Shown: in pieces, positions 378 through 8,799 of the stretch | How positions within the stretch are numbered: position 1 is the first letter of the stretch | Layout of the letters: every line of letters starts with the position of its first letter | Virus record (IMG/VR): IMGVR_UViG_2671181028_000018 | Length of the DNA: 9,159 nt | Source: a virus | Taxonomy: Duplodnaviria > Heunggongvirae > Uroviricota > Caudoviricetes | Direction: 5' to 3' (one strand) | Position numbers and translations under genes: made by a program | Notes under the pieces: model-generated | Databases searched by the model: none | Told to the model about the DNA's origin: nothing | What the model saw: only the letters and a program-made list of their open reading frames with translations

Positions 378-566
378 TCACTGCTGTTCTCCGATAATAC
401 CAAGTTCAAGAAGGGCAATTCTGGAAAGTATGGAATTATCATTGAGAAGATAAGGTTCATATTTTCTCATCTTAATGGCATCTTCAGTAAACTCCCGGTT
501 ACTGAGCAGAACACCAATATCAAAACAACCTTCAGACGTATTAACGTTTGGTAATAACGTTTCCAT
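378..566 (-). CDS. Hypothetical small protein (62 aa), uncertain
   Basis: Internal start of the 378..671 minus ORF: ATG at 566..564 preceded by GAGGA with a 7-nt spacer (forward 'tcctc' 574..578). Translation METLLPNVNTSEGCFDIGVLLSNREF... No recognisable family; overlaps competing plus-strand ORFs; locally AT-rich. Confidence 0.25.
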   Translation of the reverse strand: METLLPNVNTSEGCFDIGVLLSNREFTEDAIKMRKYEPYLLNDNSILSRIALLELGIIGEQQ

Positions 567-1133
567 TATCGCGTCCTCAACAATGAATTTTGTGATGCAG
601 TGCCTGGTGCCTCCAGGTGACGTTAACCAGTTAACAATTAACGCCGGATACAGAGAATCCACCCATAACACTGTTTTTGGTTTTAACTGTTCCGCGTGCG
701 CTCAGCCGCATTCACCGCATCACAAAATTCACTTTAAAAAGGGCGGCAGAGCAGTCACGGAGTAAAACTGATACCGCCAAACGTCACCAGAAAATTGATA
801 ACAGAGGGCGTTGCAGCGGGGTTGTCACTTAAGCGTATGGTCAACCTGACAACCCGGTGTCCTCAACGGGGAAGAAATAACCCCGCCATACTTACCGCCG
901 CGCCATTTCGCGGAGTGCCACAACCGGAAGCGCACGGTCGACGAAAATTTAACGACAGGCTATCTATGAACCAGCAACCTCGCCGTGCGCTTTCGCGTTA
1001 TGCTCTGACTTTTCAGAGAAATATCCTTTCAGTAAACTGTCAGTGCCGGATGTTCACCCGTGTCCGGCGCACGCACTCCACTTTACCCGTGGAGAACTCC
1101 TTAATTACCAACCTTAGCTTCGTTGGTTAGCTA

Positions 1134-1352
1134 TTAACGCGGGTATGTAATCATGCTGGCAATGCTTAATGCCGCTGCTTTTTCCAGATTGGTGATATCC
1201 TGCTCCAGAGCGGACAGATTTTCAGCCTGCTTAGCCCTGGCTTCATTGGCCCATTTCAGATCCTGCGCTGCATTAATTTTCTGGTGCATCCACTCATAAA
1301 GTTCATCATCGGTATAGTCTGGCGCGATGATGACGGGTTCTCGTTTCTGCAT
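1134..1352 (-). CDS. Hypothetical phage early-left protein (72 aa)
   Basis: ATG at 1352..1350 with a strong RBS (GAGGA, 6-nt spacer). Translation MQKREPVIIAPDYTDDELYEWMHQKINAAQDLKWANEARAKQ... Lies 29 nt downstream of the preceding leftward gene, so operon-like packing. Confidence 0.6.
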   Translation of the reverse strand: MQKREPVIIAPDYTDDELYEWMHQKINAAQDLKWANEARAKQAENLSALEQDITNLEKAAALSIASMITYPR

Positions 1353-1381
1353 ACTGATTCCTCGCGGTGCTGTTTCGCTTA

Positions 1382-1510
1382 TCAGCCGTTAGATTTTGCC
1401 GAGCTGGAAAGCGCCTGTTTAAATTCGCTGAAGCTGAGAGCTTCTTCGCCTTCGGCAAGGCCTTCGAAGTATTCTTCGTAAGCCTTTTCCATGATTGTGT
1501 CGAAATCCAT
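1382..1510 (-). CDS. Hypothetical small acidic protein (42 aa)
   Basis: ATG at 1510..1508, stop TGA at 1384..1382. Translation MDFDTIMEKAYEEYFEGLAEGEEALSFSEFKQALSSSAKSNG, strongly acidic. Its start sits 1 nt after the stop of the upstream gene (TGA-t-ATG), with GGTGGG just upstream serving as a possible RBS. Not in the ORF track because it is under 60 aa. Confidence 0.45.
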   Translation of the reverse strand: MDFDTIMEKAYEEYFEGLAEGEEALSFSEFKQALSSSAKSNG

Positions 1511-1511
1511 A

Positions 1512-1748
1512 TCACCCACCTGAATTTCTTTCCAGCCAGCGACGCGCTCCAGATTCGGTTTTAAACGTTTTGCTTTTGGTATACGTCATCGCGGTGAACG
1601 TACCGTCCTGGTTGGGGAACACGCCACATACCAGAGATTCGCTGTTGCCAAGATCGATAGTATCCATGCTGACCTCATTTCCCCTTAACGCCGGGGTAGC
1701 GGAACAAAAACCTGCTGCATAGTTATTAAAGTTGAACCCTGCCGTCAT
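1512..1748 (-). CDS. Hypothetical phage early-left protein, first gene of the leftward operon (78 aa, or 51 aa from an internal start)
   Basis: ORF-track ORF. Two plausible starts, each with an RBS: ATG 1748..1746 (GAGG, 9-nt spacer) and ATG 1667..1665 (GAGG, 5-nt spacer; product MDTIDLGNSESLVCGVFPNQDGTFTAMTYTKSKTFKTESGARRWLERNSGG). Size and position resemble the small ydaF/ydaG-type genes next to Rac-like repressors, but sequence identity was not verified. Confidence 0.45.
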   Translation of the reverse strand: MTAGFNFNNYAAGFCSATPALRGNEVSMDTIDLGNSESLVCGVFPNQDGTFTAMTYTKSKTFKTESGARRWLERNSGG

Positions 1749-1848: not shown

Positions 1849-1877
1849 ACTATAGGAAATGCCTAATTACTTGTCAA
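1849..1877 (-). promoter_or_regulatory. pL-like leftward early promoter
   Basis: Read on the minus strand: -35 TTGACA (1877..1872), 17-nt spacer AGTAATTAGGCATTTCC, -10 TATAGT (1854..1849). An operator site lies inside the spacer and another abuts the -35. Points toward the leftward small-gene operon. Confidence 0.6.
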
Positions 1878-1915
1878 TAGGCTATGCCTAATAATTTGGG
1901 CGCGACCTAATAGGT
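1853..1915. promoter_or_regulatory. OL-like operator cluster (three sites about 25 bp apart)
   Basis: TAGGAAATGCCTA (1853..1865) and TAGGCTATGCCTA (1878..1890) both fit TAGG-N5-CCTA. A third dyad, ACCTAATAGGT (1905..1915), sits at the same spacing but with the half-sites in swapped order. The 21-bp stretch 1871..1891 is an exact reverse complement of 2516..2536. Confidence 0.6.
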
Positions 1916-1949
1916 GATGGTTTGTGGGAGAGGTAGTAGGAGTTAACTA

Positions 1950-1971
1950 ACGGGAACTAGGAATTTCCCGT
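1950..1971 (-). terminator. Hairpin downstream of the repressor gene, possible weak terminator
   Basis: 7-bp stem ACGGGAA / TTCCCGT with an 8-nt loop, 15 to 36 nt past the repressor stop codon. No clear U-tract on either strand, so termination efficiency is doubtful. Confidence 0.25.
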
Positions 1972-1985
1972 CGGACCATATAAGT

Positions 1986-2462
1986 TTAAGTTCCTGTCTT
2001 GGTGATGTTCTGGCTTTTCCGTTTTGATTCTTGATTTTTCAGATAGTTAGCTACCTTCATTTCCATTGCGGCAATGTAGGCGCGAACGTCATGATCAACC
2101 CAACTAGGCTCCGTAGCATTTCCAGATAAGAGGAAAGCCACAATTGCTCTTTTTTCATCAGAGGCGGCTTGATAAAGGCTGTTTATGTCTAAAAGTTCAC
2201 TTTTTGTATCTGAAGTGGATGGGGTTGGTATGGGGTATTCGTTAAGCCCCCAATGCTCTGGACCAACCACATCAGAAAAGAAACGCCATAGTTCTGGAAG
2301 TTTGTCTTTACTTATCGAACCTTTCTTAATCCAGTCATGGATTGATGGTGGTTGGACTTTGAAATGACGTGCGATTTCCGCCTTTGATTTGACGGCTCCT
2401 GATGCAATTTTTTTGTTAATGGCCTGCTCTATCGCTCGGCCTAAGTCTTTACCACTAAGCAT
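1986..2462 (-). CDS. Prophage repressor, HTH type without a peptidase S24 domain (RacR-like, 158 aa)
   Basis: ORF-track ORF. N-terminal HTH-like segment KSKAEIARHFKVQPPSIHDWIKKG. No LexA/CI-type autocleavage motif seen. Divergent from the cro-like gene and flanked on both sides by operator clusters. AGGAG lies 11 nt upstream of ATG 2462..2460. Confidence 0.8.
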   Translation of the reverse strand: MLSGKDLGRAIEQAINKKIASGAVKSKAEIARHFKVQPPSIHDWIKKGSISKDKLPELWRFFSDVVGPEHWGLNEYPIPTPSTSDTKSELLDINSLYQAASDEKRAIVAFLLSGNATEPSWVDHDVRAYIAAMEMKVANYLKNQESKRKSQNITKTGT

Positions 2463-2491
2463 TGCTTAATAGTCTCCTATGCGCATCGCGT

Positions 2492-2555
2492 TAGGCAATC
2501 CCTACTCTCGATGTGTTAGGCATAGCCTATTGACAATTGTATTAGGCTAAGCCTA
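2492..2555. promoter_or_regulatory. OR-like operator cluster (three sites about 25 bp apart)
   Basis: TAGGCAATCCCTA (2492..2504), TAGGCATAGCCTA (2517..2529) and TAGGCTAAGCCTA (2543..2555), all TAGG-N5-CCTA. The third is part of a 15-bp dyad TTAGGC-TAA-GCCTAA with perfect 6-bp arms. Confidence 0.65.
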
Positions 2556-2559
2556 ATAT
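2530..2559 (+). promoter_or_regulatory. pR-like rightward early promoter
   Basis: -35 TTGACA (2530..2535), 18-nt spacer, -10 TAATAT (2554..2559). The -10 overlaps operator 2543..2555 and the -35 abuts operator 2517..2529. Predicted transcript start is about 20 nt before the ydaS-like ATG. Confidence 0.6.
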
Positions 2560-2586
2560 TGTTGCGTGTTTTTTGGAGTTCATTCG

Positions 2587-2910
2587 ATGAAAAAAGATAA
2601 CTATTCATTCAAACGAGCTTGTGCTGTTGTCGGTGGGCAATCAGCAATGGCTAGGCTTTTAGGTGTATCTCCTCCAAGCGTAAATCAATGGATCAAAGGT
2701 GTACGTCAGTTGCCTGCTGAGAGATGTCCTGCGATTGAACGAGCAACAAAAGGTGGTGTCCTGTGTGAAGAACTTCGTCCTGATGTTGATTGGACATACT
2801 TACGACGCTCGTCATGTTATTCGCAGAATATGTCGATGAAGCAACCAAATGACGAAAACGATCATACCCGAAGCATCAAGAGGCAAATGATTCATGAAAA
2901 TCAAACATGA
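2587..2910 (+). CDS. ydaS: Cro-like HTH regulator of the YdaS family
   Basis: ATG 2587 with GGAG 8 nt upstream. The ORF track's 2566 start is a GTG upstream of the predicted transcript start. Motif SFKRACAVVGGQSAMARLLGVSPPSVNQWIKGVRQLPAERCPAIERAT is characteristic of YdaS-type proteins as I recall them. First gene after pR, divergent from the repressor. Confidence 0.8.
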   Translation: MKKDNYSFKRACAVVGGQSAMARLLGVSPPSVNQWIKGVRQLPAERCPAIERATKGGVLCEELRPDVDWTYLRRSSCYSQNMSMKQPNDENDHTRSIKRQMIHENQT

Positions 2911-3319
2911 GCACATCCGCATGGCGATGAATGCCTGGGCATACCCTGATGGTGAGAAAGTTCCTGCAGCTGAAATAGCCCGGACTTATTTCGAACTGGG
3001 GATGACGTTCCCTGAACTGTACGACGACAGCCATCCGGAAGCCCTGGCCCGTAATACACAGAAAATTTTCCGTTGGCTGGATAAAGACACCCCTGATGCT
3101 GTTGAAAAAATTCAGGCTCTGTTACCGGCGATCGAAAAGGCAATGCCGCCTCTGCTGGTGGCCCGTATGCGCAGTCACAGCTCTGAGTATTACCGGGAGA
3201 TTGTCGAACGGCGGGATCGGCTGGTGAAGGATGTCGACGATTTTGTTGCGTCAGCGGTTGTTTTGTATGACCAGATGAATCGCGGCGGCCCGGCAGGGAA
3301 TGCTGTGGTGATGCACTAA
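2894..3319 (+). CDS. ydaT: YdaT-family protein (CII-like regulator, historically called a toxin)
   Basis: ATG 2894 with AAGAGG 10 nt upstream; overlaps the ydaS-like gene by 17 nt. Begins MKIKHEHI..., 141 aa, immediately downstream of the ydaS-like gene as in the Rac immunity region. Confidence 0.75.
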   Translation: MKIKHEHIRMAMNAWAYPDGEKVPAAEIARTYFELGMTFPELYDDSHPEALARNTQKIFRWLDKDTPDAVEKIQALLPAIEKAMPPLLVARMRSHSSEYYREIVERRDRLVKDVDDFVASAVVLYDQMNRGGPAGNAVVMH

Positions 3320-3341
3320 AAGCACGGTGTTCGGGGGTTTT

Positions 3342-4304
3342 ATGAGCAGCAAGCTTCATGGTCTTGTCTGGGAAGGGTGCGCCTTCACCGGCATGATCTT
3401 ATCCAGGGTGGCGGTTATGGCCCGTCTTGCAGACTACAGCAATGACGAGGGTGTGTCATGGCCTGCCATTGAAACTATCCGGCGTCAGATCGGTGCAAGA
3501 AGTGAATCCACAGTGAAATCGGCTATTGCAGAACTGGCGAAAGAGGGCTGGCTGACGAAGGAAGAGCGTAAGGTCGGTGGGCGTAATGTAAGCAATATCT
3601 ATCGGCTTAATGTGGAAAAACTCGAAGCAGCAGCTGCGGCGGCGCGTGAGTCATATAAACCGAAAAGAAAAATTAGCCCGGCAAAAAATGACCAGTTAAC
3701 AGTTGACCCGTCAAATATTGCCCCCTCAACGGTTGACCCGTCAAATTTTGATGGATCAACTGTTGATAAAAAACTGCCGATTAGGGGGGCGATGATTGAC
3801 CCCGATCCGTCAGTATTAAAACCTGATCCGTCAGATAAAAGATCTTCTTGTCCGGACGCTTCGCAACCGGACCCGCAGACGGCTGAACAGGATTTTTTAA
3901 CCCGACACCCTGACGCGGTTGTGTTCAGTGCGAAAAAACGCCAGTGGGGAAGTCAGGAAGATTTGGTGTGCGCACAGTGGATCTGGGGACGAATCGTGAG
4001 TCTTTACGAGCAGGCGGCCAGCTATGATGGCGAGATCACTAGACCGAAAGAACCCAACTGGACAGCATGGGCCAATGACGTTCGCACAATGCGGATGCTG
4101 GATGGCAGAACTCACAGACAAATTTGTGAAATGTTTGGGCGTCTCCAGCGGGATTCGTTCTGGGTAAAAAACATCATGAGTCCGGCAAAACTCCGGGAAA
4201 AATGGGATGAACTGGTTATCCGCCTGGGGCGTTCGCCTGCGCAGCGTTGCGTGAATCACATTTCTGAACCGGACACTGAAATTCCGCCGGGCTTCAGGGG
4301 GTAA
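3342..4304 (+). CDS. Replication-initiator-like protein with N-terminal winged-helix/HTH domain (lambda O / YdaU position)
   Basis: ORF-track ORF 3327..4304; preferred start is ATG 3342 (GGGGG 4 nt upstream) rather than GTG 3327. N-terminus LVWEGCAFTGMILSRVAVMARLADYSNDEGVSWPAIETIRRQIGARSESTVKSAIAELAKEGWL looks like a phage replication-protein HTH. A repeat-encoded linker (TVDPSN... PDPS...) separates it from the C-terminal domain. Confidence 0.7.
   Translation: MSSKLHGLVWEGCAFTGMILSRVAVMARLADYSNDEGVSWPAIETIRRQIGARSESTVKSAIAELAKEGWLTKEERKVGGRNVSNIYRLNVEKLEAAAAAARESYKPKRKISPAKNDQLTVDPSNIAPSTVDPSNFDGSTVDKKLPIRGAMIDPDPSVLKPDPSDKRSSCPDASQPDPQTAEQDFLTRHPDAVVFSAKKRQWGSQEDLVCAQWIWGRIVSLYEQAASYDGEITRPKEPNWTAWANDVRTMRMLDGRTHRQICEMFGRLQRDSFWVKNIMSPAKLREKWDELVIRLGRSPAQRCVNHISEPDTEIPPGFRG
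3694..3834 (+). repeat. Iteron-like direct repeats inside the replication-initiator gene (candidate origin)
   Basis: GTTGACCCGTCAAAT occurs exactly twice (3702..3716 and 3732..3746, period 30 bp); the core TTGAC-CC-GTCAA is a near-dyad. GATCCGTCAG occurs twice (3804..3813 and 3825..3834, period 21 bp). A more A/T-rich stretch follows (3834..3850). Confidence 0.4.
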
Positions 4305-4344: not shown

Positions 4345-4767
4345 GTGGCAAAAGTTTTTACACAAGAAGAGCGGGAAAAAATTAAAGGGCAGGTTGTTGA
4401 ACTCGTACGCCAGAGTGGGCGCGAGACGTTACGACAACTGGAAACTAAAACTGGGGCAACAAGATATCTGATGAGCGTTCTGGCCAGAGAGCTGGTTGCC
4501 AGTGGCGATGTATACAATTCTGGCTACGGGTTATTCCCGTCTGAACAGGCTCGTAAAGACTGGCAAAATGCCCGCAAAAAACTCTCAAGGGCAAAGCTGA
4601 AGAAACCATCTGCGGTTGATCCGGACCTTATCTGGTCATTACCTGATGGAGAAATACGTCGTTACGACAGGCATCATAATATAATTTGTACTGAGTGTCG
4701 TAAAAGCGAAGTTATGCAGCGCATATTGTCGTTTTATCAGGGGAATGTTCGGTATTTATTAAAGTGA
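4345..4767 (+). CDS. Hypothetical protein (140 aa), function unknown
   Basis: ORF-track ORF with a GTG start at 4345 and AGGAGG 4 nt upstream. Basic, with a Cys/His-containing C-terminus (HHNIICTECRK). Sits where a helicase-loader partner would be expected, but no DnaC/P-like motifs seen. The 3' end becomes A/T-rich. Confidence 0.5.
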   Translation: MAKVFTQEEREKIKGQVVELVRQSGRETLRQLETKTGATRYLMSVLARELVASGDVYNSGYGLFPSEQARKDWQNARKKLSRAKLKKPSAVDPDLIWSLPDGEIRRYDRHHNIICTECRKSEVMQRILSFYQGNVRYLLK

Positions 4768-5166: not shown

Positions 5167-8100
5167 ATGAGTGATGATAGCTATAAATTTCAAAAGTTAA
5201 CGCCGTTCAGCGATGTTGAGCTGGGTGTATATAAAAATGCGATAGATTTTGTTTTTGCCAATAACGATCTAAAAAATGTTGCGATATCAGGGCAATATAG
5301 CGCAGGAAAAAGTAGTCTTATCGAATCCTATAAGAAAAGTCATTCAAATATAAAGTTTGTTCATATCTCACTTGCTCATTTCAGATCGATTGAGGAAGCT
5401 GAAACTAATGAACCAAGTAAAGATATAAATGAAACCGCGTTAGAAGGTAAAGTTCTTAACCAGTTAATTCACCAAATTAATGCTGATGATATTCCCCAGA
5501 CACATTTTAAAGTAAAGAAAAAAATAAAAACTAACAACATTGTGATAAACACCATCTTTACGGTGTTATTTATCGCCATGATACTACATATCACGCTATT
5601 TAATAAGTGGGAAAAGTTTGTTTCACTTTTATCTGAAGGTAATATAAAGACACTACTTACATTATCAACTAAATACGATACGCTTTTAATTAGTGGGTTT
5701 ATATGTACTATCCTATCTTGTATTTTCATTTACAAGTTAATAAAAACCCAAAAGAATCGTAATGTTCTTAAGAAAATAAATTTACAGGGTAATGAAATAG
5801 AGATTTTTGAAGAAAGTAACGAGTCTTATTTCGATAGATATTTAAATGAAGTATTGTACCTTTTCGAGAACGTTGATGCTGATGCCATTGTTTTTGAAGA
5901 CATGGACCGTTTTAATAGTAATAACATCTTTGAACGTCTTCATGAGGTTAACAGACTGGTTAATATTCAACGGGACACAGCAGGGCACAAGAAATCGACG
6001 TTACGTTTTATTTACTTGCTTCGTGATGATATCTTCATTTCGAAGGATAGAACCAAATTCTTTGATTATATCATTCCAGTTATTCCTGTTGTTGATAGTT
6101 CTAACTCTTACGATCAGTTTATCACACATTTTGATGGTGGTGGTATTCTCAAGTTGTTCAATGAAAGATTTCTACAAGGGATGTCTTTATATATTGATGA
6201 TATGAGAATATTGAAGAATATTTATAACGAATTTCAAATTTATTATAACAAATTAAACACGACAGAACTTGACTGTAATAAAATGTTGGCCATTATTGCC
6301 TATAAGAATATTTTCCCAAGAGATTTTAGTGAGTTGCAACTTAATCAAGGTATGGTTTATACCATATTTAGTGAAAAAGACAACCTTATTATTGAAGAAA
6401 TAAAGAAAATAGAAAAAGATATTAGAGATAGAAAAAAAGAGATTGAGGCAATCAATGATGAAATACTCAACTCTAGTCAGGAGGTTGATGCTATATACGA
6501 TAAGGAATTATCTAGATATAATAATCATCCTCACTATAATCAGGCTGAGAAAGCTGATATAGCAAAGAGAAGGGCGGCTAGAAAAGAAAGTGTTGAAAAT
6601 AAATTTAATGGTAAAATAGAAGAAATTAATGAGCTTATATCAAGATCAAGAGAAAGTTTGGTTGATTCTAGAAACAAAAGACTTAAAGAAGTAATAACTA
6701 GAGAAAACATTGATGAAATATTTAAACTCACCTATACCAATGAAATTGGAGAGGAAAGAGACTTTAATGAAATAAAAAGCAGTGAGCATTTTGACTTGCT
6801 TAAATACCTTATTCGTGATGGTTATATTGATGAAACCTATACCGACTATATGACCTATTTTTATGAAAATAGCCTGAGTCGAATTGATAAGATGTTTTTA
6901 CGCAGCATTACCGATCAAAAAGGCAAAGAGTTCACTTATCAACTCAAGAACCCCAAGCTGGTCGTTGCCCGCCTTCGAGAAGTGGATTTTGAACAGGAAG
7001 AGGCGCTTAATTTTGATTTATTAGCTTATCTGCTTCAAACGCCAGCCCAGGTAAACTTAATAAAACGTTTATTCAAACAACTAAGAAAAGATAGAAGAGT
7101 TGAGTTTATTCGTGGTTACTTTGAAACTGAGAGGGCTCAGCCTGTCTTCATTAATCGATTAAATACACAGTGGCCTGAGTTTTTTTCTTATGCGCTGACA
7201 GAGAGTGAATTTTCTGCTGATTGGGTTAAACTCTACTCTATAGGCACGTTTTATTATTCTGCCAATGACGCCATCGAGGCCATTAATATTGATGATTGTC
7301 TGACTGATTACATCTCTGATTCGGCAGGTTATTTAGCAATATCAGAACCGAAGGTTGACAAATTAATTAGTGGTTTTAAGTTGCTTAACGTCTCTTTTGT
7401 CAGTATTAAATTTGAAAACGCAAATAAAGTACTCTTTGATGCGGTTTACCAGCATTCACTTTATGATATTAATTTTTCCAACCTGACCTTAATGCTGAGT
7501 AAGGTTTACACGCTTAATAGTGAAGATGATATTCGCCATAAGAACTATACACTAGTGATGTCACAACCTGATTCTCCCTTGGCTAGTTATGTTAATAACC
7601 ATATTAGGGACTATCTGGATATGGTTTTATCTAGTTGTGATGGTTCAATCGTGGATGATGAATCCATTGTTTTATCCGTTCTTAATAATGAGGGAATATC
7701 TGATGAACAAAAAGGCCAGTATATAAACGCTTTGCAAACTTTCGTGACATCTCTGAGTGAGGTTGAGAGCGAATCTTTATGGTCATCTTTGTTGGATAAA
7801 GATAGAGCAGTGTGCTCTGAGGAAAATATTGTCTCTTATTTTGAACATGTTGATGGACTGGATGACTCACTTATCGAATTTATCAATAGAACTGATGTAG
7901 ACCTGAATTTTCAAAATATTAATATTGATAACGAGCTTAAAGGTAAATTATTTAAATCGATTGTTATCTGTAATGATTTATCAAATGATAAATATGAAAA
8001 ATTAATTTGCTCACTAAATATTATTTGTAAAACATCCTTTAGCGCTAGTAATATCGCGAGTGATAAGTTCAAAATATTAGTGGATAAAAATATTATTCGT

Positions 8101-8799
8101 ATGAATGTTGCGCCACTTAATTTCATACGAGATAACTATTCAGAGCAACTTTCCTATTATATTCATAAGAATATCAGGGCATACGTTGAATTAATGACGA
8201 TTGATAACTTTATTTTGGATGAGGCTATATCAATACTTTCTTGGAAAGTTGATGATGATTTGAAAGTTAAGCTACTCGAGTTTGTTAAAACTCCGTTGGC
8301 TATTTATAGTAAGAATTACTCTCAGGTCGTTAATGACTATATTTTAGAAAATAATTTTAAACCAGATGAACTTCTAATCTTGACGTCATCTTATAAAACT
8401 TGGGGAACCTCTACTCAGTCGCTCATCTTGAGTCGAGCAATACAGGATATATCAGCATTGATAGCAAGTCCTAATGATGTTTCTGAACCGTTACTAAAAA
8501 ACCTGTTTGTCGCAGAGGGACTGAATATGCAGAATAAAATAGCACTGCTAATCGCTTTGTTGCCGGGTAAGGATTTGAGTAAGACGACTTGCAAAGAGTA
8601 TCTTGATCTGCTTGGTTTATCGGAGTTCAGTAAAATTTTGGGGCGAGGCAAACCTAAAATTGAAGTTGATTCAACTAATCAAAGTTTATTAACAGCATTA
8701 AGAGATAACCACTTCTTCTCTGATTTTGAGGTGGATAATGAAAATCCCACTTATTATAAAATAACAAGGCGGCGCTCTATGTTTGGCTCAGATACATAG
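5167..8799 (+). CDS. Large P-loop NTPase with transmembrane insertion in the NTPase domain (KAP-type / YobI-like / Tmn-like), 1210 aa
   Basis: ORF-track ORF. Walker A GQYSAGKS (5290..5313). Two hydrophobic helices between the Walker motifs: IVINTIFTVLFIAMILHITLF (about 5536..5601) and LLISGFICTILSCIFIYKLI (about 5680..5745). Walker B IVFEDMDR (5887..5910), matching the hhhhDDxDR form typical of KAP NTPases. A Lys/Glu-rich coiled-coil-like stretch (roughly residues 400 to 520) and a long C-terminal region without recognisable motifs follow. Codon usage is strongly A/T-biased, unlike the flanks. Confidence 0.9.
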   Translation: MSDDSYKFQKLTPFSDVELGVYKNAIDFVFANNDLKNVAISGQYSAGKSSLIESYKKSHSNIKFVHISLAHFRSIEEAETNEPSKDINETALEGKVLNQLIHQINADDIPQTHFKVKKKIKTNNIVINTIFTVLFIAMILHITLFNKWEKFVSLLSEGNIKTLLTLSTKYDTLLISGFICTILSCIFIYKLIKTQKNRNVLKKINLQGNEIEIFEESNESYFDRYLNEVLYLFENVDADAIVFEDMDRFNSNNIFERLHEVNRLVNIQRDTAGHKKSTLRFIYLLRDDIFISKDRTKFFDYIIPVIPVVDSSNSYDQFITHFDGGGILKLFNERFLQGMSLYIDDMRILKNIYNEFQIYYNKLNTTELDCNKMLAIIAYKNIFPRDFSELQLNQGMVYTIFSEKDNLIIEEIKKIEKDIRDRKKEIEAINDEILNSSQEVDAIYDKELSRYNNHPHYNQAEKADIAKRRAARKESVENKFNGKIEEINELISRSRESLVDSRNKRLKEVITRENIDEIFKLTYTNEIGEERDFNEIKSSEHFDLLKYLIRDGYIDETYTDYMTYFYENSLSRIDKMFLRSITDQKGKEFTYQLKNPKLVVARLREVDFEQEEALNFDLLAYLLQTPAQVNLIKRLFKQLRKDRRVEFIRGYFETERAQPVFINRLNTQWPEFFSYALTESEFSADWVKLYSIGTFYYSANDAIEAINIDDCLTDYISDSAGYLAISEPKVDKLISGFKLLNVSFVSIKFENANKVLFDAVYQHSLYDINFSNLTLMLSKVYTLNSEDDIRHKNYTLVMSQPDSPLASYVNNHIRDYLDMVLSSCDGSIVDDESIVLSVLNNEGISDEQKGQYINALQTFVTSLSEVESESLWSSLLDKDRAVCSEENIVSYFEHVDGLDDSLIEFINRTDVDLNFQNINIDNELKGKLFKSIVICNDLSNDKYEKLICSLNIICKTSFSASNIASDKFKILVDKNIIRMNVAPLNFIRDNYSEQLSYYIHKNIRAYVELMTIDNFILDEAISILSWKVDDDLKVKLLEFVKTPLAIYSKNYSQVVNDYILENNFKPDELLILTSSYKTWGTSTQSLILSRAIQDISALIASPNDVSEPLLKNLFVAEGLNMQNKIALLIALLPGKDLSKTTCKEYLDLLGLSEFSKILGRGKPKIEVDSTNQSLLTALRDNHFFSDFEVDNENPTYYKITRRRSMFGSDT

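Follow-up and report, generated by a model that had tools for sequence, protein, structure and literature searches.

Organization of the locus

The window analysed here, a stretch of 9,159 nucleotides, is the early region of an Escherichia coli lambdoid prophage. Positions 1900-3400 match the annotated chromosomes of E. coli DEC9B and ML775 with 100% identity, and the gene layout follows that annotated by RefSeq in the identical DEC9B locus. Upstream of the window, this chromosome carries potD-potC, followed by integrase, excisionase and exonuclease genes. The left part of the window is read from the minus strand and holds dicB (378-566), the small RNA DicF (741-792; 76.7 bits in Rfam compared with a gathering score of 48), ydfC (1134-1352), ydfB (1382-1510) and a DUF1391 gene (1512-1667, also matched by the Pfam model of that name). 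The gene for the CI-like repressor RacR (1986-2462) is on the minus strand as well. Read from the plus strand are the orthologue of ydaS (2587-2910), encoding a Cro-like helix-turn-helix (HTH) regulator that RefSeq names “HTH protein”, and a ydaT allele of the CP-933P type (2894-3319; 141 amino acids), named “toxin YdaT family protein”. The sequence-only reading had described these two frames as ydaS-like and ydaT-like, and RefSeq has the identical two coding sequences in the DEC9B locus. The pair is followed on the same strand by a gene in the lambda O position for an HTH replication-initiator-like protein of CP-933P type (3342-4304; Pfam HTH_36, 2.1e-06), which has 14 nucleotide differences from the 963-nucleotide orthologue of the CP-933P-type locus, by a DUF977 gene (4345-4767), and by a gene for a hypothetical protein of 1210 amino acids (5167-8799). 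An IS2 element lies downstream of the window.

The DEC9B prophage has a frameshift in the Q antiterminator gene, a truncated tail-tip gene and insertions of IS2 and ISEsa1. The host prophage, which is integrated next to potCD, is therefore probably defective, and because of the frameshifted Q and the insertions, there may be no productive lytic cycle left for the switch described below to control.

RacR, its operators and the flanking promoters

The repressor scores 246.8 bits against the NCBIfam equivalog model NF049929 (TransRepsrRacR; cut-off 200) and is 92% identical to K-12 RacR, and the intergenic region between racR and ydaS matches its K-12 counterpart at 93% identity. A promoter scan places a pR-like promoter, PydaST, at 2530-2559 on the plus strand (TTGACA-18-TAATAT, 10/12 matches). 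Its hexamers and spacing are identical to those of the mapped K-12 PydaST, which is a very strong promoter (PMC11879457). For K-12, the RacR operator consensus (T/A)TAGGC-N3-GCCTA(T/A) and the O1-O3 layout have been published (PMC9638921). The pattern WTAGGC-N3-GCCTAW has seven matches in the window, compared with 0.89 expected, and none of 200 shuffles reaches seven. All but one of these matches fall into two clusters of three, at 2491-2556 and 1852-1910.

By consensus pattern and K-12 layout, the OR-like cluster as a whole spans 2456-2556. It contains two predicted RacR operators that are perfect palindromes, one between the -35 and -10 hexamers of PydaST (2542-2556) and one abutting the -35 hexamer (2516-2530), together with a predicted site of weaker match (2491-2505) and a degenerate one around the racR ATG (2456-2471). 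Two repeat families (D1 and D2) with a spacing of 25-26 nucleotides run through the cluster. The proposal of a pR-like promoter covered by operators ahead of the gene pair is thus borne out by TTGACA-18-TAATAT with its perfect RacR-consensus palindromes, and the gene order is that of Rac and CP-933P.

The second cluster lies on the other side of racR. Here, the promoter scan finds a pL-like promoter on the minus strand (1877-1849; TTGACA-17-TATAGT, 11/12 matches), and the operator pattern identifies three RacR-type operators (1852-1866, 1877-1891 and 1896-1910). This promoter/operator region (1849-1910) is conserved in K-12 Rac. A 21-nucleotide perfect inverted repeat (I1), consisting of an OR operator plus the -35 hexamer, joins the two clusters. 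Downstream of the pL-like promoter is the leftward operon DUF1391-ydfB-ydfC-DicF-dicB (378-1667, minus strand), and a simple terminator scan, which gives a weak negative, found no minus-strand terminator-like site between pL and dicB. DicF and DicB, known from the Qin dicB operon, are division inhibitors directed at FtsZ.

YdaS

The ydaS frame runs from the ATG at 2587, which is preceded by GGAG 8 nucleotides upstream, to a stop at 2910, and encodes 107 amino acids. The protein matches Pfam PF15943 (YdaS_toxin) with E=3.8e-30 and 103.9 bits (cut-off 30), and also the P22_Cro family (1e-08); its nearest solved structures are Cro proteins (3bd1, 2.8e-10). It shares 85% amino-acid identity with K-12 Rac YdaS (E=2e-63), but only 40% with CP-933P YdaS, in a local stretch of 58 residues. 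Compared with K-12, ydaS lacks 12 nucleotides upstream of the position where the K-12 TGA stop has become CGA. As a result of this change, YdaS is 13 codons longer and extends through the YdaT-box to overlap ydaT. The overlap is 17 nucleotides in the window, whereas the two genes are separated by a 22-nucleotide gap in K-12 Rac and overlap by 4 nucleotides in the CP-933P-type locus. Overlapping frames had been proposed as part of an order shared with Rac; the overlap is real here, but it is not common to K-12 Rac. The C-terminal extension through the YdaT-box and the translational overlap, both absent from K-12, could alter the coupling of the two genes.

YdaT and the YdaT-box

YdaT matches Pfam PF06254 (YdaT_toxin; 8.2e-11, 42.6 bits, cut-off 21), and among solved structures PDB 8bt1, which is CP-933P YdaT (E=1.2e-88), and 3c4r (E=9e-80). 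It is 95% identical to the CP-933P-type copy of O157:H7, with 7 substitutions, and only 31-33% identical to K-12 Rac YdaT (E=4e-15). The gene order in the O157:H7 comparison locus is a ParE-family toxin, a RelB-family antitoxin, a hypothetical protein in the paaR2 position, ydaS and ydaT. The similarity of both window proteins to YdaS and YdaT is genuine, since the alignments to Rac and CP-933P are far above chance. In the three-way alignment, Arg60 and Trp61 of the recognition helix α3 are invariant, with Arg57 as the K-12 counterpart of Arg60, and the importance of the conserved Arg and Trp has been described (PMC9986795, PMC11879457). CP-933P YdaT has the same recognition-helix region (ARNTQKIFRWLDK), in which Phe59 corresponds to His56 in K-12. 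From the literature on near-identical parts, YdaT would be a CII-like tetrameric transcription activator of the POU/HTH type.

A candidate binding site, the YdaT-box, is located at 2887-2904 as an inverted repeat ATGATT-N6-AATCAA (ATGATTCATGAAAATCAA), with the ydaT start codon in the spacer. It differs at one position from TTGATT-N6-AATCAA, the first base being A and not T. The latter is the OM operator of CP-933P, which occupies the same position (PMC9986795), while the letters of the window box are identical to those of the DNase-footprinted YdaT-box of K-12 Rac (PMC11879457). In degenerate form the pattern is not rare, as 61 of 200 shuffles of the window give at least two matches at no more than two mismatches; because these statistics are weak, it is the position of the box and its exact identity with the footprinted K-12 site that support it.

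In K-12, binding of YdaT to the box stimulates PracR4, a promoter within ydaS, by as much as 29-fold, and racR expression rises (PMC11879457). Sequence reading and alignment to K-12 suggest a counterpart of this PRE-like reverse promoter at 2677-2709 on the minus strand. The -10 hexamer TACGCT is kept (2682-2677), whereas the proposed -35 is CTGACG, compared with TTGACG in K-12. The hexamers are 21 nucleotides apart in the window and K-12 alike, and the distance from the promoter to the YdaT-box is 178 nucleotides, compared with about 190 in K-12. On a reporter carrying the Rac YdaT-box and PracR4, CP-933P YdaT activates as strongly as Rac YdaT (PMC11879457, Fig. 3C). The combination used in that reporter, CP-933P YdaT together with the Rac YdaT-box, occurs naturally in the window. 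A further target of YdaT in K-12 is the intergenic region between racR and ydaS, but the CP-933P protein leaves the paaR2-ydaS region of its own prophage unbound (PMC11879457), so that part of the K-12 circuit may be missing here.

A chimera of Rac and CP-933P parts

The window was mapped by blastn against K-12 Rac and the CP-933P-type locus, together with three-way and pairwise alignments. The best match of positions 1-1352 is the CP-933P-type left arm (87% identity), that of 1680-2917 is K-12 Rac (86% identity, gaps included), and that of 2888-4302 is again the CP-933P type (96.5% identity). The crossover from K-12 Rac type on the left to CP-933P type on the right falls in the interval 2888-2917, which comprises the YdaT-box and the first eight ydaT codons (MKIKHEHI) and is common to all three loci. 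As judged from the alignments, the locus is a natural chimera, in which racR, the operators, ydaS and the YdaT-box are of K-12 Rac type, and the body of ydaT and the downstream replication gene are of CP-933P type. Purifying selection acts on all three regulatory genes, with dN/dS values of 0.10 for racR, 0.18 for ydaS relative to K-12, and 0.06 for ydaT (range 0.06-0.18).

Two uniform descriptions of the locus were considered and rejected. An assignment to K-12 Rac throughout fails because the DNA alignment collapses after about 2917-2929 and YdaT has the low identity to K-12 given above. An assignment to CP-933P throughout fails because the repressor is RacR and not PaaR2, YdaS is similar over only 58 residues, and the paaA2-parE2 cassette is absent.

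Part of the 1900-3400 stretch is present in 3495 of 5426 complete E. coli genomes. The hybrid racR-ydaS-ydaT arrangement, counted as genomes covering at least 80% of window positions 1900-3400, is found in 529 of the 5426 (~10%). This number is similar to that of genomes with the K-12 arrangement (554), among which laboratory derivatives of K-12 are numerous. Among phages, the isolate vB_EcoS-683R6 has a K-12-type racR-ydaS-ydaT, and phage Tritos has a left arm of the same dicB/DicF type and a related YdaT allele (ydaT DNA 81% identical to the window) behind an unrelated CI/Cro pair. The chimera is an instance of ordinary lambdoid modular exchange.

Proposed working of the switch

We read positions 2587-3319 as the cro/cII-equivalent pair in the immunity region of a Rac-immunity lambdoid E. 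coli prophage, operating by the RacR/YdaS/YdaT switch mechanism, and put the probability of this reading at roughly 0.85. RacR would bind the TAGGC-N3-GCCTA operators interleaved with PydaST and thereby keep the bicistronic ydaS-ydaT transcript silent, and it would probably also repress the pL-like promoter on its other side. A drop in RacR would allow YdaS, acting as a Cro-like HTH protein, and YdaT to be made. The YdaT tetramer, with its POU-type HTH, would then bind the YdaT-box spanning its own start codon, and box-bound YdaT would activate the reverse, PRE-like promoter inside ydaS that is directed toward racR, which would constitute a CII-like loop promoting lysogeny. Toxicity, if any, would be a by-product of mis-expressed switch regulators and not a dedicated toxin function.

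The reading as a Cro/CII-like switch is well supported. YdaS and YdaT were assigned as analogues of Cro and CII by Casjens (2003) and Jobling (PMC5917428). K-12 YdaS promotes prophage excision (PMC11014345), and both the CII-like role of CP-933P YdaT and the bistability of the CP-933P immunity region have been described (PMC8630535, PMC9986795). The view that YdaT is a CII equivalent, also put forward from the sequence, agrees with work published for exactly the CP-933P allele type (PMC9986795, PMC8630535). We infer that the regulatory roles known from parts 85-100% identical to those in the window operate in the chimera too.

Comparison with known systems

The locus belongs to the already known RacR/YdaS/YdaT family of immunity modules, and all testable defining features of the family are present. 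One of its closest known systems is the module of the cryptic K-12 Rac prophage (b1356-b1358), with which it shares RacR (92%), YdaS (85%), the intergenic region (93%), the hexamers and spacing of PydaST, the identical YdaT-box, the conserved pL/OL region and the gene order. It differs in YdaT, where the low identity (31-33%) results from the allele switch after about codon 8. In addition, the -35 hexamer of the window reverse promoter is off by one base, ydaU/ydaV follow downstream in K-12 but HTH_36 and DUF977 genes here, the left arm carries kilR in K-12 but DicF/dicB here, and the window prophage adjoins potCD and is not integrated at the Rac site.

With CP-933P/Sp12 of O157:H7, the locus has in common YdaT (95%), the O-like gene (14/963 nucleotide differences), a left arm of the dicB/ydfC type and a YdaT operator at the ydaS/ydaT junction. 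It differs in having RacR where CP-933P has PaaR2, in the absence of the paaA2-parE2 toxin-antitoxin cassette, in its YdaS (only 40% over 58 residues) and in the first base of the YdaT-box, which is A and not T.

The arrangement also resembles lambda cI-cro-cII with its PR, PRM and PRE promoters. In both, a repressor gene and a divergent cro-like gene with tripartite operators are followed by a cII-like activator gene and replication genes, and the activator drives a reverse promoter toward the repressor gene, an analogy that has been drawn before (PMC8630535, PMC11879457, PMC5917428). The proteins themselves are different. [quoted passage not shown] With respect to the comparison with lambda, CP-933P PaaR2 has no RecA-cleavable domain (PMC8630535). 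The site for YdaT consists of an inverted repeat, some 180-190 nucleotides away from the promoter, whereas lambda has direct repeats flanking the -35. The switch would thus work like that of lambda without useful homology to it.

Proposed toxicity and dependence on RacR

The sequence-only reading had gone further and proposed possible conditional toxicity for the ydaS/ydaT pair, which would render the repressor gene effectively addictive to the host. On this account the pair would be conditionally toxic cargo, whose derepression kills or filaments the cell, so that racR cannot be lost while both genes are intact. The background that it cited from K-12 is accurate, as racR can be deleted there only together with ydaS and ydaT (PMC5700373). 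Knock-down of racR in K-12 leads to death and filamentation through both genes, with YdaS as the main killer (PMC5700377), and a 2026 preprint gives the same picture (10.64898/2026.09.06.749655). The YdaS of the window shares 85% identity with its K-12 orthologue, with conserved promoter and operators, and growth defects were seen when CP-933P YdaS was overexpressed for a long time (PMC8630535). The toxicity of Rac YdaS is nevertheless disputed: it was described as toxic in 2017 (PMC5700373, PMC5700377) and as non-toxic in 2023, when a second laboratory found YdaT to be the sole toxic factor (PMC11014345). The same study found that the toxicity of K-12 YdaT depends on rcsA and is relieved by its inactivation, and that depletion of RacR also triggers excision of the prophage, which rescues the cells (PMC11014345). 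YdaT in the window, however, is the CP-933P allele, overexpression of which has no toxic effect (PMC8630535) and which cannot switch on the rcsA promoter of the host (PMC11879457, Fig. 7C). Moreover, regulators of the Cro/CII type are often harmful when overproduced, yet are not toxins (PMC5917428). By sequence identity and the literature, the window does not carry a YdaT allele capable of rcsA-dependent filamentation or death, and toxicity of this allele is unlikely. Addiction is thus plausible only through YdaS. The claim was carried over from K-12, is weakened here and is not supported as stated, and we regard conditionally toxic cargo as a doubtful description of the pair. The Pfam and RefSeq names suggest a type II toxin-antitoxin pair, which is extremely improbable. 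Apart from those names (“YdaS_toxin”, “toxin YdaT family protein”), only the compact, overlapping two-gene layout speaks for it, whereas both proteins are DNA-binding HTH regulators, single deletions of ydaS or ydaT in K-12 are viable, and co-expression brings no neutralisation (PMC5700377, PMC5700373, PMC11014345). This interpretation has been explicitly rejected for CP-933P (PMC8630535) and by Jobling (PMC5917428), and a PADLOC search gave no match for YdaS or YdaT. We reject it likewise, on the experimental literature and the HTH character of both proteins.

Loss of RacR could also be harmful for reasons unrelated to ydaS and ydaT, because a pL-like promoter with RacR-type operators heads the DicF/dicB operon, a route that the sequence-only reading had not taken into account. 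The near-consensus pL with its three operators and its 21-nucleotide perfect inverted copy of OR sequence, the score of DicF, the annotation of dicB in the identical locus and the outcome of the terminator scan are all in keeping with harm arising mainly from this leftward operon. Against this, transcription from pL to dicB would have to extend over 1.3 kb and is a prediction, and kilR, the corresponding leftward inhibitor of K-12, does not account for the essentiality of racR there (PMC5700373). We consider this route unlikely to be the main one. Within the preferred reading of the pair as Cro/CII-like regulators, a tentative proposal is that the essentiality of RacR depends on the allele, such that the chimera, recombined within the conserved 25-30 bp formed by the YdaT-box and the ydaT N-terminus, has a YdaT that keeps the CII-like feedback on racR but has lost the cross-talk with host rcsA behind the lethality of K-12 YdaT. 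If so, strains with the chimera would tolerate loss of RacR, or suffer only via YdaS or DicF/DicB, and the “addiction” of K-12 would be an accident of one allele and not a property of the module.

Implications

Detailed genetic, biochemical and structural studies of the racR-ydaS-ydaT switch are available for K-12 Rac and CP-933P, and its operators and promoters have been published. The natural Rac/CP-933P chimera, and what it implies for an allele-dependent “addiction” to RacR, are not explicitly described in the literature searched. Beyond correct annotation, the finding matters little, but it does call for caution, since neither the labels “toxin YdaS” and “toxin YdaT” nor the essentiality of K-12 racR are automatically transferable to genomes with the hybrid locus. 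YdaT alleles that are only some 30% identical to each other reassort without regard to the repressor/Cro pair and do not affect the host alike, and the hybrid locus provides a natural test of whether the “addiction” to RacR depends on the YdaT allele.

The ydaS/ydaT junction

The recombination point at which K-12 Rac-type sequence gives way to the CP-933P type (the latter as in the O157:H7 locus) lies at window 2888–2917, within the conserved YdaT-box, the inverted repeat whose spacer holds the ydaT start codon, and the first eight ydaT codons. The YdaT alleles are only ~30% identical to one another, and the short YdaT-box/ydaT-start regulatory site seems to serve as a homologous linker for swapping them between immunity regions. 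Compared with K-12, the TGA stop codon of ydaS is changed to CGA in the window and 12 nt are deleted upstream (window 2865–2910), and because of these two changes YdaS acquires a 13-residue C-terminal extension, with translation continuing through the YdaT-box to end inside ydaT. Such an overlap does not exist in K-12, where the two genes are separated by a 22-nt gap, and in the CP-933P-type locus the overlap is 4 nt.

The window's ydaT differs from the O157:H7 CP-933P-type ydaT at 37 nucleotides, 26 of which lie within the gene's first 130 nt (window 2894–3023, ydaT nt 12–129). In many genomes the match to the window begins only at 2987. Both observations hint at an additional small mosaic patch inside the 5′ part of ydaT.

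A counterpart of PracR4, the reverse promoter inside ydaS that reads towards racR, is located on the minus strand at window 2677–2709. The hexamers described for K-12 are TTGACG and TACGCT (PMC11879457), but the −35 hexamer in the window is CTGACG. The spacing is 21 nt in both, an unusually wide gap for a sigma-70 promoter.

Accessory genes and state of the prophage

The 1210-residue ORF on the plus strand at window 5167–8799, named "hypothetical protein" in RefSeq, occupies a moron position, with a DUF977 gene on one side of it and an IS2 element on the other; its G+C content (0.29–0.36) is much lower than that of its neighbours (~0.44–0.54). In Pfam it matches the YobI-like P-loop NTPase (E=8e-123), and among the PADLOC models for anti-phage defence it matches "Tmn" (E=4.9e-67). 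It looks like a prophage-borne defence gene.

In the chromosomal copy that extends past the window (L003, NZ_CP074760.1 2176000–2216000), the prophage is inserted beside potCD, not at the K-12 Rac site. Downstream of the window it carries relBE and hokD, and the T3SS effector genes NleG and EspW are also present. The Q antiterminator is frameshifted, a TerB-family gene has an internal stop, and the tail-tip gene is truncated; this effector-carrying lambdoid prophage is probably defective.

The leftward operon

Window 1849–1910 holds, on the minus strand, a near-consensus leftward promoter (TTGACA-17-TATAGT) together with three RacR-type operators that overlap it. This promoter heads a Qin/CP-933P-type operon, DUF1391-ydfB-ydfC-DicF-dicB (window 378–1667, minus strand), in which the DicF sRNA (window 741–792, minus strand) scores 76.7 bits with Rfam. 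DicF and DicB are division inhibitors. Since the operators overlap the promoter heading the operon, both inhibitors are apparently placed under control of RacR, the CI-like repressor, in the window. Loss of RacR could thus be harmful for an alternative reason, through DicF and DicB.
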